Shown here piece after piece: positions 30,799-40,533 of a stretch of DNA of 64,000 nucleotides. A model generated the notes under the pieces. The model searched no databases. It was not told where the DNA came from and was given only the letters and a program-made list of their open reading frames with translations. This DNA comes from Legionellales bacterium. GTDB taxonomy: Bacteria; Pseudomonadota; Gammaproteobacteria; JAGOUN01. The stretch is taken from contig JAIXPZ010000078.1 in the NCBI GenBank assembly GCA_027486005.1, positions 1,849 to 65,848 on the forward strand, written 5' to 3'. The position numbers were made by a program, and so were the translations under genes. Each line of letters begins with the position of its first letter. Position 1 is the stretch's first letter.

Positions 30799-32199
30799 GT
30801 GAAATTACACGTATTAGGGGCTTGTGGCACATTTATGGCCGGAGTTGCTTATATTGCTCGCCAGCTTGGCCATGAAGTGATTGGGGTTGACCAAAATGTG
30901 TACCCACCTATGAGTGATTTTCTACGTGCTCAAGGTATCACCTTACTTTCGGGGTATGAAAATTATAAAACACTCAGTGCGCCAGATTTGGTGATTGTGG
31001 GTAATGCCATGAGTCGTGGTAATCCAGCGATAGAGCATTTGTTGGATCAGCGGTGGAAATATATTAGCGGTCCGCAATGGTTATATGAAAATGTATTATG
31101 TCATAAAAAAGTATTAGCGGTTTCTGGGACGCATGGCAAAACAACCACTTCCAGTATGCTAGCGTGGATATTGCAATACGCAGGGTTATCGCCGAGTTTT
31201 TTAATTGGTGGAATCCCCCAAAATTTTAATACGTCTGCTTGTGTGAATGATAGTCCGTACTTTGTGATTGAAGCCGATGAATATGACAGTGCTTTTTTTG
31301 ATAAGCGTTCCAAGTTTTTGCATTATCATCCTGAAACGCTGATTATTAATAATATTGAATTTGATCATGCGGATATTTTTTCCAGTCTCGAAGATATAAA
31401 AAAACAATTTCATTATTTATTGCGCACTGTGCCATGTGCAGGCACGGTGATCTATCCACATAATGACAAAGTCCTGGCGGATCTTTTTGCGATGGGGCTT
31501 TGGAGTCAATCTGAGTCTTTTGGCTTGGACCATGATGCTAAATGGACGCCAGAGGTGTTTCATTCATTAGGCGATTCTCTTGAGAAGATGTTGCCGTTAT
31601 TAGGAAAGCATAATCGATCAAATGCATTAGCGGCGATTGCAGCCGCCCATTCTGTAGGCGTAGAAGTTTCTGTAGCGGTGCATGCTTTGACACAATTTCA
31701 AGGTGTAAAAAGACGTTTAGAAAAAATTGCTGAAGTTAAATCAGTAATGATTTTTGAAGATTTTGCGCATCATCCCACAGCTATTGAAACAACATTAGAT
31801 GGCTTGAGAAAGCATAGGCCTGAGGGGCGATTAATTGCATTATTAGAATTAGCGTCGTATACGATGAAAGCCGGTGTGCATAAGACAAGCTTGATTCCTG
31901 CTTTAAAGCTTGCTGATGAGATTCATATTTTGCAAACAGCAGTGCCGCATGAATTTGATGTGCCCAAGGATAGAAAAAATCTTTTCTATCCTGTGAGTGT
32001 CGAGGAGATGATCGCGAAAGTTTGCAGTAATATTCAGGTCAACGACACGGTTCTCATTATGAGTAACCGTGATTTTGGTGATATTTATACTAAGCTGCCG
32101 GAGCGTCTGTTACGCCTTAGGATGAATAAACATACCATGCAGGTAACAAAGGAAAGTAAACTGCAAGATGAATGTTTTGATGGCCAACAACGCGACTGA
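30799..32199 (+). CDS. mpl: UDP-N-acetylmuramate:L-alanyl-gamma-D-glutamyl-meso-diaminopimelate ligase
   Basis: Mur ligase motifs (VSGTHGKTTT, DEYDSAFFDKRSKF) and overall Mpl-like length, with a GTG start. Confidence 0.85.
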   Translation: MKLHVLGACGTFMAGVAYIARQLGHEVIGVDQNVYPPMSDFLRAQGITLLSGYENYKTLSAPDLVIVGNAMSRGNPAIEHLLDQRWKYISGPQWLYENVLCHKKVLAVSGTHGKTTTSSMLAWILQYAGLSPSFLIGGIPQNFNTSACVNDSPYFVIEADEYDSAFFDKRSKFLHYHPETLIINNIEFDHADIFSSLEDIKKQFHYLLRTVPCAGTVIYPHNDKVLADLFAMGLWSQSESFGLDHDAKWTPEVFHSLGDSLEKMLPLLGKHNRSNALAAIAAAHSVGVEVSVAVHALTQFQGVKRRLEKIAEVKSVMIFEDFAHHPTAIETTLDGLRKHRPEGRLIALLELASYTMKAGVHKTSLIPALKLADEIHILQTAVPHEFDVPKDRKNLFYPVSVEEMIAKVCSNIQVNDTVLIMSNRDFGDIYTKLPERLLRLRMNKHTMQVTKESKLQDECFDGQQRD

Positions 32200-35100
32200 G
32201 GGCTTGTTTATAGGAGAGCAGCTGCTTACGGTATTGTTGCGCTGCCTGTTGAATAAAGTCATCGTTGGAAATGTTAGAATATTTATTTTCTGTGGTTTTA
32301 AAATCAATGATCCAGTGTTCACCATTTTCATCGATTAATACTCTATCAATAATTTTTTTGGCCCATTGTCCATAATCGTAATCTAAAAGCGTATATTCGC
32401 TACATGCCTTAGAGTGATTTTGAAGAATCCATTGTCCGCGATGATCACTAACCATATTGTTTATGGCAAGAAGTGCTTTTTCGGTACATATCCCGTAAAA
32501 CTCAGTTGAAAGATTAAGCTGTTGGCATAATGCTTGAATAATTTTTTGATGGATTGTCAAAGAAAGTGATTTCCACCAGCAAATCCCGTTCAGAGCTATT
32601 TTTTCAATTAAAAGATGAATAATTGAACCTAATCTAGCTTCGTTGCGATGCAAGGGTAAAACTAATTCAGGGGAATTTTTTTGCGTTGCTTCATACGCAT
32701 CATTTTTATGGGCTATCTGTAAAAAGTGCTGTATCGTAGATAAAGTGACCCGATGCAAGAGGGGGTGAAATTTTGTTTTTAACTCTGCTTCTTCAGTGAC
32801 AAGCTCGTTAATACTTTTTTGGAAAAGACCGGGATGCGCTTGCCATATTCTTCCTAATAAACTTCTGCTGCTAGGTGCAACAATGGAGTCGGCGTCATTT
32901 CGTTCAACGGTCGCAGTCAAAAATATACATTTTTTTGCACGTGTTGTAGCCACATAAAGAACCCGGTCCATTTCTAGCAGCAATTTTTGTTGTTGTTGCT
33001 GTTGAATATAATCATAAGTTTTATCAGTAGTATTAACTTCACTGATTGGGGCCATCAATAAATGATGAATGTTATCCGCATCAGGGTATTCTAACCAGGC
33101 GATGAGGGGTCTATCGAGAGGCGCTGTTTTTTTATGAAGTTTAGGCAAAAAAACATGATCAAACTCTAATCCTTTGGCCTTGTGTATTGTCATAATCTGT
33201 ACGGCATTTGTTTGAGGTTGTGGTGCCGCTGCAAATAACGTATTTATTTTTCGCTCTAGAATTTCAAGATTTACAACACCAAAACTGTCTGTTATTTTTT
33301 TTAGCACTTCGAAAAATCGTTCAATATCTCTGCGTTGACTTTTATGGGATAAAATATTTTCTCCACCTAATAGTGTCCAAGTTTTTTCGACAATGTCACG
33401 TAATGAATATCGTTGTCGTTGTTGTATGGCAAACGTCATGGCTTGGCGAAAATGTACCAATCTTTGTTTGGCATCATCGCAAAGCAAAGAGCATACAGCT
33501 TCGTCCAATATCAGTTCCCACAGAGTTTTTTCTTCAGAGGCATGCATAATGGTCCAAAGATCTTCAAGTGTTAAGCCGCACCAGGGGGCTCGCAAACAAG
33601 AAATCCAGGAAAGACGGTCTGCCAAATGCATACAAGCACGTGTTAGGCTTAATAAATCATAGATAATGGGCAGGTGTGATAATGATTCAATATCTACCGC
33701 TTGATAAGCAATGGATGATGCAAGTAATAATGGAGTGATACTTTTTAAGTGATCACGTGAGCGAATTAAAATAGCAATAGTTTCTTCAGGGAAATTTCGT
33801 TGAATTTCTTTTATTTTATTCACGATATAACTTTCTTCTGAAAGTGGATTTTCTTTTAAAAAGTAAACGCATTCTGCTTTGCTACTATCTTTTTCTTTGT
33901 GAATAGGATGTGCTTGACTATAAGGTATGGCGCCTAAGCGAATAAGTTCATTTTTAGGAAAAACAGACTGAAAAATAGCATTGGTCCAATGAACTAGTTG
34001 AGATGTTGATCTAAAATTGCTAGTTAATGAGACAAAGTTTAGCATTACATGGCCTATGCCATAATGTTTTGCATGCAAAAAAAGGCCAACTTCAGCTTGT
34101 CTAAATCGATAAATCGATTGCATTGGATCGCCTACTAAGAATAACGTTCTACCATCCTTATATGTCCAGCCAGAGGTTAATTTCTCTAATAATTGAAATT
34201 GATTGCTAGAAGTATCTTGAAATTCATCGACTAAAATATGTTGGATTGTATAATCCAACTGTAAAGAAACCTCAGTTGGTTGGTCAGAGTTTCCCAAAGC
34301 GTGTAAAGCACTTTGCGCATTTTCAATGTAATCTACTTGGCTGTGCTCTGAGAAGGCTAAGCGTAGCTGCGCTGCAGTTAATGGCAGTAAAGTCAATAAT
34401 GCAGAGAGCACGTTCCATTGAGAGTCAGTGTAATGGGTGTTAGGAAGTTTCCTCGTTTCAGTTAGCCAGTGAATAAAATCAGCATGATATTCTAGCGTAT
34501 TGACAAGTGTTTGATAGCGTTGCTTGTATTCATCAAATATTTTTTTTTCTGATGGAGATTTTGAAGAAGAAGCTGGAGGAAAGCCAATGTTTTTATCAGA
34601 TTTTTTTCTTAATTGATCACTTTGAGTGAGAAGCATGTTGGCGATGAATAGCCAATGGTCTTTTTTTAAGGGCGACCAATCGTTAGGCTTTACATTGGGC
34701 CACGGTATTGTTGCAGATGCGTAAATAGCTAGCGCTACTACTTCTTTTTCTAATACAGCAGGCAACAACCCTATGCCATCTTGTAAAACAAACTCATTAA
34801 CATGTGCGAGTTCTTTTTCAAGAAAAATTCTTTTTTCATTGGCATCATTACCCAGCATCATTAAGGGTAACCATTGATCACGTTTTGAAAGCAAAGTAAT
34901 CAGTAATAACTCTAATCGATAATAGTCATTATCTAAGTAAAGCAATAATATTTTAATATCTTCAAGCCAAGGCGCATCTTTTGGCGGCGAGAGTAAAATT
35001 GTTTTAGCGGCTTGTTGGTATAAAGAATGTGGATCTTCTGCAATTGCAAGTTGAGCGCCCAGTTTTGAGCTTATCGGTAATTTTTGAGCGATTTGTAAAG

Positions 35101-39778: not shown

Positions 39779-40533
39779 ATCGTCGTTGCTCCTTTGCTCA
39801 GTAGTTGGAAAGGTTTGAACAACTTTATAACATCTTGGTTAGAAATGAAAGATAGATTATAAGGATGTTCAGAGATGATTTTAGGAAACGCTTTGGTATT
39901 AATGTTGTCGGCAGCATTTTTGGCGATGTTTCCAAAAAGAACAAGCGTTGGTCGCGGGCGATTTTGGCAAAGCACTGGAAAAAGGGTTTTTAAAAACGGC
40001 AACCATTGTTGTGACGAAAGCGAAACGCTAGTATTGCCTAGAGTTAGTGAGGCATTCAATAAGAGAAAGCCGTGGTCAAGTAACTTTTGAAAGAGCTCTT
40101 GATTGGTTTGAATCATATTGCTTTTGTCGAGTCTTACGATCGCTTCCTGTTGTGTGTTTTCAGCACTAAGATCGCCGGAAGCAACCAGCAGCATTTTGAT
40201 AAAGTTTCTGAGCGAGGTTGCACGGTTGACTTCTTTAGAAAGGCCTTTAGATGTCCAAAGATCTGTCACGGCTTGATCCCAGAAAGCGTAGCCATTAGCA
40301 GATTGAGCGCGTGGATAAGGAGATTCTCCGATTAAAATGTATTTTACAGAGTTTTTGGGGAAGCTAAAGGCATTAAAAATCTTGCTAATTCCGGGTAACC
40401 AGCGGGGCGTATCCAAGAGTGATTGTAAATAATTAGCATCCATAGCCTGTAATGCACGCGTAAGTAATGGCTCCCAGGTCGGATGATAGCGCGTTTGGCT
40501 CATAAATGTTGAGATAAGATTGGTTTTGTCCAT
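39766..40533 (-). CDS. Uracil-DNA-glycosylase-superfamily-like protein of a divergent family
   Basis: Motif A-like GESPYPRAQSANGYAFW (compare GQDPYH...A.GL.FS of UDG) and motif B-like EHPYNLSF (compare HPSPLS). The stop overlaps the response-regulator start by 13 nt. Confidence 0.5.
   Translation of the reverse strand: MDKTNLISTFMSQTRYHPTWEPLLTRALQAMDANYLQSLLDTPRWLPGISKIFNAFSFPKNSVKYILIGESPYPRAQSANGYAFWDQAVTDLWTSKGLSKEVNRATSLRNFIKMLLVASGDLSAENTQQEAIVRLDKSNMIQTNQELFQKLLDHGFLLLNASLTLGNTSVSLSSQQWLPFLKTLFPVLCQNRPRPTLVLFGNIAKNAADNINTKAFPKIISEHPYNLSFISNQDVIKLFKPFQLLSKGATTICES

Follow-up and report, generated by a model that had tools for sequence, protein, structure and literature searches.

In Coxiella burnetii the genes CBU_1227 (qseB, 1176990-1177688) and CBU_1228 (qseC, 1177685-1179121) lie on the same strand as CBU_1229 (1179351-1181939), annotated as 'ATP-dependent nuclease subunit B' (PMC3961360 supplement), and QseBC is the homologue of Legionella pneumophila PmrAB, the regulator of Dot/Icm secretion (PMC3961360). 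Upstream of pmrA, CBU_1226 encodes a protein of more than 1484 amino acids (aa) which is not a uracil-DNA glycosylase (UDG) (PMC8170629). Concerning the UDG superfamily, Xia et al. described Gln-Asp (QD) in family 1 and Glu-Gly (EG) in family 4 as correlated doublets (PMC5387724), and the UNG of Nitratifractor salsuginis is, as referenced in PMC10776899, the 'unconventional family 1 UNG' of Li et al. (FEBS J 2017). Here we describe a stretch of 64,000 nucleotides (nt), referred to as the window, from an uncultured Legionellales bacterium of Coxiellaceae type (assembly GCA_027486005.1, contig JAIXPZ010000078.1, positions 1,849 to 65,848). At 32117-40533 five minus-strand genes encode, in order of reading, a UDG-fold protein with Glu-Ser (ES) in motif 1, a PmrA/PmrB-like two-component system, and the AddB-like and AddA-like proteins. 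The explanation that accounts best for all of them together, and which we hold to be probable with a good deal of doubt left, is an inherited, likely co-transcribed block of an active, Asp-less UDG, PmrAB and AddBA.

All five open reading frames (ORFs) were confirmed in the six-frame ORF list at the exact coordinates of an earlier sequence-only reading of this DNA. These are the UDG-fold gene of the N. salsuginis UNG type (39766-40533, 255 aa), the OmpR-family response regulator and PmrA/QseB positional orthologue (39083-39778, 231 aa, Response_reg and Trans_reg_C), the PmrB/QseC-like histidine kinase (38085-39086, 333 aa, HisKA and HATPase_c), the AddB-like nuclease subunit (35460-38078, 872 aa, TIGR03623 and PDDEXK_1) and the AddA-like helicase-nuclease (32117-35491, 1124 aa for the longest ORF; UvrD-helicase, UvrD_C and PDDEXK_1). 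The junctions are, as that reading had it, overlaps or gaps of no more than 6 nt. The UDG gene overlaps the regulator gene by 13 nt, and the AAGGAG Shine-Dalgarno sequence of the regulator ATG is found inside the 3' end of the UDG gene. Regulator and kinase share 4 nt (ATGA), and 6 nt separate the kinase stop from the addB ATG. The overlap of addB and addA is 32 nt if the longest addA ORF is taken; more probably it is 8 nt (ATGACTAA) and AddA starts at Met9 (35467), because an AGGA ribosome-binding site is located there and this start fits the Coxiella N-terminus better.

The upstream boundary of the block is a divergent gene. A 57-aa Trm112p/YcaR-like gene (40602-40775, plus strand; Pfam PF03966, 56.3 bits against a cut-off of 22) occupies the 241-nt interval which separates the UDG gene from uvrC, and its stop overlaps the uvrC start codon; the true divergent spacer is therefore 68 nt. 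The best-scoring minus-strand promoter-like site of the promoter scan lies in this spacer, 5' of the UDG start codon, where TTGATA-16-TATGAT (40570-40597, minus strand) matches the sigma-70-like consensus at 10/12 positions and is the putative operon promoter. Transcription would probably start there and read through the five genes. Promoter- and terminator-like sites occur in the pattern scan at the level of shuffled sequence, and no terminator is predicted at any junction. Since the junctions leave no room for terminators, none is predicted, and promoter-like hits do not exceed chance, co-transcription is plausible, and the overlaps, the 6-nt junction and the ribosome-binding site inside the UDG gene make read-through hard to avoid. 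The five genes are most likely a compact, co-transcribed block.

The curated family models do not capture the 255-aa protein. It has no match in the Pfam scan, five NCBIfam Ung models score far below their cut-offs (the best, NF003592, with 62.5 bits against 162), and TIGR00628 gives 53 bits against 185.75. Among PDB sequences (HMMER) the top matches are 5x3g (E 1e-46) and 5x3h (E 2.5e-45), over residues 18-247, and canonical UNGs match at E 5e-5 or worse. According to the Foldseek labels, 5x3g and 5x3h are the wild type and the Y81G mutant of N. salsuginis UNG, an enzyme which is reportedly insensitive to Ugi. An AlphaFold (AF2) model built on 14 homologues has a predicted local distance difference test score (pLDDT) of 86.5 and a predicted template modelling score (pTM) of 0.86. 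In Foldseek it matches 5x3g/5x3h with template modelling (TM) scores of 0.84-0.88, followed by family 1 UNGs with 0.45-0.6; 56 PDB chains match at E<=1e-3, and all 50 matches listed are uracil-DNA glycosylases. Judging from this model, the protein has the predicted UDG fold and belongs to the N. salsuginis-type, family-1-like subgroup. The assignment to the UDG superfamily made in the sequence-only reading is thus borne out, and GESPY literally matches none of GQDPY, GINPG, GMNPG and GEAPG. Its placement outside the known families did not hold, as the subgroup has a solved structure (5X3G) and homologues are already labelled 'uracil-DNA glycosylase' by NCBI and JGI.

Two other placements were rejected. 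Family 4 membership is ruled out by the presence of only two Cys (189 and 253), with which no 4Fe-4S cluster is possible, by the GESPY motif, and by finding no family 4 entry among the 50 best Foldseek matches listed. BdiUng (Blr0248) is not the closest relative: its motif is GQDPA, the best PDB matches are those of N. salsuginis UNG, and no entry named BdiUng is among the 40 PDB sequence matches listed.

Concerning the active site, the two motif strings pointed out earlier are present, namely GESPYPRAQSANGYAFW in the motif 1 region (40279-40329, minus strand, residues 69-85) and EHPYNLSF in the motif 2 region (39847-39870, minus strand, residues 222-229). In HMMER alignments to 3cxm and 5x3g, G69-E70-S71-P72-Y73 aligns with the family 1 G-Q-D-P-Y, E70-S71 standing in place of Q-D. 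With this exchange of Gln-Asp for Glu-Ser the water-activating catalytic Asp is lost, and the pocket residues are kept: Y73, F84 (the stacking Phe of family 1 UNG), N160 (in LLLN; the uracil-reading Asn) and H223 (in HPYNLS; the motif-2 His of HPSPLS in the alignment to 3cxm, which stabilises the leaving group in UNG). Also in motif 2, the Pro, Leu and Ser of the canonical HPSPLS are retained together with the His, and the central residues are changed.

The ES doublet is found in 120/120 best database homologues and in 80/80 Legionellales genome loci. Across 14 members with 50-85% identity, 66 columns are invariant, and the ratio of non-synonymous to synonymous substitution (dN/dS) of the UDG gene against the nearest genome (L001) is ~0.05. 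The doublet is real and constrained, and no sequencing oddity. A HMMER search of 1.84 billion representatives shows a small family, with 554 matches at E<=1e-3 and 43 at E<=1e-30; among 150 representatives the doublets are ES (56), EG (19), QD (18), ED (5) and EA (1), with a single QE and others. The elements PYPR, SAxGxxF, N[RK]ATSLRN, LLLN and HPYNxxF are common to the different doublets, N[RK]ATSLRN is invariant in the alignment, and so is the H-P-Y of motif 2 across ES, EG, EA and QD members. Three QD members fall inside the same family; QD, EG, EA and ES members share one scaffold at 40-50% identity, and the sister clades of ES carry EG, EA or QD. A fixed Glu-Ser doublet, with EG, EA and QD as alternatives on a family-1-type scaffold, is modestly new. 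For UDG enzymology this is a natural experiment, in which one scaffold carries QD, EG, EA or ES depending on the clade, and it mirrors the correlated QD/EG doublets, for which comparisons had so far been limited to family 1 versus family 4 and to mutants. In the Legionellales genomes recovered, many Legionella species among them, ES is the form present; it appears never to have been assayed.

Whether such a doublet is compatible with catalysis can be approached from family 4. Its doublet is E-[G/A], in the motif GE[G/A]PG of active enzymes; family 4 UDGa, which lacks the Asp, excises uracil robustly and specifically, and its motif-2 His stabilises the leaving group (PMC5387724). In Thermus thermophilus (Tth) UDGa the change of EG to QD costs only five-fold in activity, whereas single changes cost 90-900-fold; in this enzyme both doublets are catalytically competent (PMC5387724). 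Because the pocket is conserved, family 4 works Asp-free, and ES, EG, EA and QD share a scaffold, the 255-aa protein is most likely, by analogy, a uracil-excising enzyme which is independent of the Asp. In the proposed mechanism the His would stabilise the uracilate leaving group in an SN1-like reaction, as in family 4.

Pfam domains, NCBIfam models and homologue labels agree with the earlier description of the next two genes as an OmpR-type, QseB/PmrA-like regulator and a QseC/PmrB-like kinase. The best NCBIfam models of the regulator are PmrA (245.5 bits against 330) and QseB (234.7 against 345), both under the cut-offs of equivalog models which describe enterobacterial proteins. Homologues with 67-95% identity are labelled QseB; the 120 best matches are all unnamed or 'QseB' and from metagenomes, with no named Coxiella or Legionella PmrA among them. 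The kinase covers only positions 177-439 of the 442 of the QseC model. Between two N-terminal hydrophobic segments (~8-28 and ~35-55) it lacks ~121 residues present in 37 orthologues, and just ~6-10 residues form the loop between its transmembrane segments; the comparison indicates loss of the periplasmic sensor domain in this lineage. Its counterpart in L001, the nearest genome (L001:4411-5253), is only 280 aa long and has no membrane segment. The H-box peptide of the window kinase is identical to that of CBU_1228 at 13/15 positions, and CBU_1230 peptides resemble the window AddA (peptides from PMC8170629). Because addB and addA come directly after the pair, just as CBU_1229 and CBU_1230 come after CBU_1227/1228, the pair is the positional orthologue of C. 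burnetii PmrA/PmrB, the orthology being defined by position and the H-box peptide.

The identities proposed for the last two genes also stand. The 872-aa AddB-like protein belongs to TIGR03623 as a member of full length, scoring 748 bits where the cut-off is 299.6; it carries the nuclease motif IIIDYKT at 746 and the Fe-S-type pattern C606...C857-x2-C860-x5-C866; it contains no Walker A motif. The AddA-like protein has GSGKT at 35 and the C-terminal PD-(D/E)XK motif IIDFKT at 1061, and lies under every curated AddA, RecB or PcrA cut-off (TIGR02784: 195.9 against 860.75; TIGR02785: 194.3 against 707.65). 'AddB' and 'AddA' are fair names for these divergent members. Downstream, the convergent mpl gene for murein tripeptide ligase (30799-32199, plus strand; TIGR01081, 537 bits against 388.7) runs 83 nt into the 3' end of addA (32117-32199), read directly and in line with the earlier estimate. 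The overlap corresponds to the last 27 codons of Mpl and lies within a non-conserved tail of ~29 residues past the TIGR01081 match (residues 2-437 of 466). At the addA 3' end of one relative (L162), no mpl-type overlap is found.

The distribution of the block across genomes was followed by scanning a genome collection with an alignment of the ES proteins, which gave at least 583 loci; the counts below use the best 80 species-level loci, and neighbouring genes were located by tblastn with the window proteins. All 80 loci are from Legionellales (Legionella species, Coxiellaceae and 'Gammaproteobacteria' metagenome-assembled genomes, MAGs), the closest being L001, with a UDG 87% identical. The UDG gene is followed by a PmrA-like regulator in 41 of the 80 species genomes, within 320 nt in 31 and after an insertion of 0.9-8 kb in 10; the spacer between the two is 46-317 nt in most relatives. 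No more than 90 nt separate addB from the kinase gene in 17 loci, and the uninterrupted five-gene order is found in 8 loci and also in L162, a complete 2.6-Mb MAG with a 252-aa GESPYPR homologue upstream (49% identity). The ycaR-like gene is the conserved left boundary of the block, being the divergent neighbour in 39 syntenic loci as well as in L053, L161 and L162.

Other loci contain parts of the block. In L053, a Legionellales MAG (L053:9947-16519), the UDG gene, addB and addA overlap one another with no two-component system between them, and RNase E is upstream. L024 has the order UDG gene, regulator, addB; L161 has pmrAB-addBA and no UDG gene; in L001 (L001:8084-11434) dnaX, recR and a PLD-family gene come after addB, and addA is missing; and in L010 a methyltransferase gene is located 3' of the UDG gene. 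In the remaining 38 of the 80 loci, including every named Legionella species, no regulator or addBA was found nearby. Concerning the EG clade (80 metagenome loci, GC ~63%), neither AddA nor AddB was found as a neighbour, no PmrAB-type pair lies beside the UDG gene, and the few weak two-component matches lie 4.5-8 kb upstream on the opposite strand. These loci rule out a linkage of UDG and AddAB as a property of the whole UDG subfamily; it is therefore a property of the lineage. Adjacency to uvrC, considered as a repair-cluster signal, was rejected since it occurs only in the window and in L001.

The arrangement is no chance pile-up, because the same order recurs in many independent genomes. 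The sequence-only reading called it unusual. This did not survive the comparison: the order pmrA-pmrB-addB-addA is present in C. burnetii and the UDG gene precedes pmrA in about half of the related genomes, and ycaR<-|->udg-pmrA-pmrB-addB-addA is an inherited gene order, ordinary for Coxiella-like Legionellales. The explicit recognition of pmrAB in one compact block with addBA, often with the UDG gene, is modestly new.

As regards regulation, the Legionella/Coxiella PmrA element is said to be TTAA-N7-TTAA. Upstream of the UDG gene it is found in 5/79 loci against ~2.6 expected, which is no enrichment, and in the spacers between UDG gene and regulator in 2/29, near background. The sole PmrA-like candidate at the cluster promoter (40593-40609) has 2 mismatches; 64 such sites were found against 58.7 expected. 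Conserved 7-8-mers 5' of the UDG gene in syntenic loci were rejected as a regulatory motif, being coding sequence of the divergent ycaR/trm112-like gene. There is no sign of a PmrA-type regulon targeting the cluster.

Elsewhere in the window such sites are present. Enterobacterial PmrA half-sites are CTTAAG/xTTAAT spaced by 5 bp (PMC3973317), and a perfect predicted repeat of this type, CTTAAT-AATTT-TTTAAT, is located 11 nt before a correctly positioned TATAAT, a -10 element (26558-26591, plus strand). It precedes an AAGGA site and the ATG of an orphan 642-aa ORF (26614-28542), which has no Pfam hit and falls in the lowest-GC part of the window (34%); the ORF is a candidate for activation by PmrA and possibly encodes a secreted effector. 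A second perfect CTTAAT-N5-xTTAAT match (50570-50586, plus strand) lies inside the ORF 49565-51010, and the looser TTAAT-N6-TTAAT occurs 4 times in the window where 0.86 would be expected. In the part of the window that was annotated, no dot/icm genes were identified. The perfect repeat at 26558-26591 suggests that a PmrA-type regulon probably operates in this organism.

If the block is read as one unit, base excision, PmrAB and break repair would be expressed together. The two-component system is orthologous to PmrA/PmrB (QseB/QseC), the pair in control of Dot/Icm secretion in Coxiella and Legionella, and AddB with AddA would form a helicase-nuclease resecting double-strand breaks. A possible coupling is that uracil excision creates breaks which need AddAB repair. 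In the genetics of E. coli dut and recBC, uracil excision generates breaks needing RecBCD/AddAB-type repair. There are also reports that C. burnetii upregulates addAB in vivo and that these genes are damage-inducible (PMC4647677 and its reference 56).

Several points weigh against an active enzyme in a single transcription unit. The motif-1 loop (residues 72-81) is the least confident part of the AF2 model, with a pLDDT below 50, and the active-site geometry can therefore not be judged from it. In canonical UNG, loss of the catalytic Asp cuts activity by orders of magnitude. The open-access literature searched holds no biochemical data on a member with the ES doublet, and nothing relevant on GESPY, GEGPY or GEAPY. 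As for the transcript, we infer it from spacing only; the promoter-like hexamers inside the genes, although at chance frequency, could still be real, and the 230-nt gap between pmrB and addB in C. burnetii could hold a separate promoter. The adjacencies ycaR-UDG, UDG-pmrA and pmrB-addB break independently in relatives, which fits a decaying ancestral gene order as well as a selected operon.

From these last points comes the alternative which survives best, although we consider it unlikely: the genes are unrelated neighbours in the frozen order of a slowly rearranging lineage, and internal promoters drive udg, pmrAB and addBA independently. Each adjacency is indeed lost independently in some relatives, most of them have a spacer between UDG gene and pmrA, C. 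burnetii has its gap between pmrB and addB, and the promoter-like sites inside the window genes, at background frequency, are compatible with it. It fits poorly with the window itself, where neighbouring genes overlap or stand 6 nt apart and the regulator has its ribosome-binding site inside the UDG gene, and with the close spacing of kinase and addB in 17 genomes.

A less probable alternative, to which we give little weight, concerns the Glu-Ser protein alone. It would be no uracil glycosylase, and would either bind damaged bases or uracil or have shifted to hypoxanthine, xanthine or oxidised pyrimidines. Every ES member lacks the catalytic motif-1 Asp, the curated Ung models are far under threshold and Pfam gives no UDG hit, the motif-1 loop is poorly modelled, and other non-canonical UDGs have broadened specificity: BdiUng is insensitive to Ugi and excises 5-hydroxymethyluracil (5-hmU) and xanthine (PMC5449639). 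Against this stands the invariance of the residues for uracil specificity (motif-1 Tyr, stacking Phe, the Asn reading N3/O4 and motif-2 His). The E-G/A enzymes of family 4 are robust and uracil-specific, QD and EG are interchangeable at modest loss (PMC5387724), and the occurrence of four doublets on the same scaffold fits a single conserved activity.

Weakest, and in our view improbable, is the regulated DNA-damage module of the sequence-only reading, in which the kinase would sense genotoxic or host-derived stress and the regulator would autoactivate the operon, inducing uracil excision and AddAB end resection together as a substitute for a LexA-type SOS response: the tight coupling of the five genes, the order kept in many Coxiellaceae-type genomes, the hint from L053 and L024 that the UDG gene and addBA stay together, and the in vivo upregulation of addAB in C. 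burnetii (PMC4647677 and its reference 56) would suit it, but the system is the orthologue of PmrAB, which controls Dot/Icm secretion (PMC3961360), the PmrA-type boxes upstream are unenriched and the promoter candidate is at chance frequency, the window kinase lacks the sensor domain, the UDG gene lies away from regulator and addBA in the genus Legionella, the EG sister clade has no such neighbours in 80 loci, and no UDG gene accompanies pmrAB-addBA in L161 or in C. burnetii. Nothing shows damage sensing, and a role of the kinase as DNA-damage sensor is not favoured.

The inherited block of Asp-less UDG, PmrAB and AddBA is thus the reading we retain. That PmrAB, the Asp-less UDG on its family-1 scaffold and AddAB form one selected stress operon in Coxiellaceae-type bacteria is a stronger statement, and there is only a slim chance of it. 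If true, entry into a host vacuole, where nitrosative and oxidative stress causes deamination, would raise uracil excision and the repair of the resulting breaks, both would be under the same signal as the switch-on of Dot/Icm, and UDG families 1 and 4 would have a natural intermediate in the ES-doublet enzyme. For the biology of Legionella and Coxiella, the master virulence regulator pmrAB is located, in Coxiella-like lineages, in a tight block with addBA and often with the UDG gene described here. This raises the questions of whether transposon (Tn) insertions in pmrAB are polar on break repair and whether PmrA influences repair genes. Neither the UDG nor the pmrAB point overturns current understanding.

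Looking at the rest of the window, an orphan LuxR/GerE-type response regulator (30023-30667, minus strand) and a phosphofructokinase-family gene (28670-29959, minus strand) are found just beyond mpl. On the other side of the block, a tRNA Gly-Cys-Leu cluster is located at 43310-43607 (plus strand), and an Rfam scan of 30000-44000 gave nothing beyond the three tRNAs. It is followed on the opposite strand by a nucleotidyltransferase (Polbeta-type) and helix-turn-helix (HTH) protein (44090-44782), paired with a 143-aa protein without family hit (43681-44112); the two genes may be a toxin-antitoxin-like module. A 930-aa protein (45112-47904, minus strand) consists largely of ankyrin repeats. Ankyrin-type, eukaryote-like proteins are typical of the effector repertoires of Legionella and Coxiella.

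Compared with the AddAB of Bacillus subtilis and α-proteobacteria, the window AddA is likewise a UvrD-type helicase with a RecB-type nuclease, and the C-terminal RecB-type nuclease of AddB is likewise bracketed by Cys-x(n)-Cys-x2-Cys-x5-Cys. The window AddB differs in belonging to a separate subfamily (TIGR03623) and in having no Walker A, and the window AddA in reaching 196 of the 861 bits required on the curated AddA model.

Among the named UDGs, BdiUng of Bradyrhizobium diazoefficiens is also a non-canonical enzyme with a family-1-like motif A, but it carries GQDPA and has no classical motif B (PMC5449639). Canonical Ung (E. coli; C. burnetii Ung, PDB 3TR7) shares the superfamily fold and the aligned Tyr/Phe/Asn/His pocket; it has GQDPY/HPSPLS where the window protein has GESPY/HPYNLS, the TM score is just 0.45-0.6 and the model score 62 bits against the cut-off of 162, and the window protein has extra helices and the NRATSLRN insertion. 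The family 4 UDGa of T. thermophilus resembles it in the Glu plus small residue of the doublet, in having no water-activating Asp, and in a proposed mechanism using the motif-2 His, conserved here as H223; it differs in scaffold, in the PG end of motif 1 (PY here), and in its 4Fe-4S cluster, as opposed to two Cys here. Closest is N. salsuginis UNG (5X3G), which shares PYPR after motif 1, SAxGYAF, the VNRATSLRN insertion, LLLN and the motif 2 EHPYNxxF at a BLAST-level identity of ~45%, with GQDPYPR there and GESPYPR here and in the whole Legionellales clade.

Concerning the block as a whole, C. burnetii CBU_1227-1230 is the closest described counterpart. Its 478-aa PmrB keeps a stretch of ~120-145 residues, taken as the sensor domain, which the 333-aa kinase of the window lacks; it has 230 nt before addB, compared with 6 nt in the window, and no UDG gene 5' of pmrA. 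In gene order, strand, the 4-nt pmrA/pmrB overlap, the kinase H-box and the AddA peptides, the two loci are alike.

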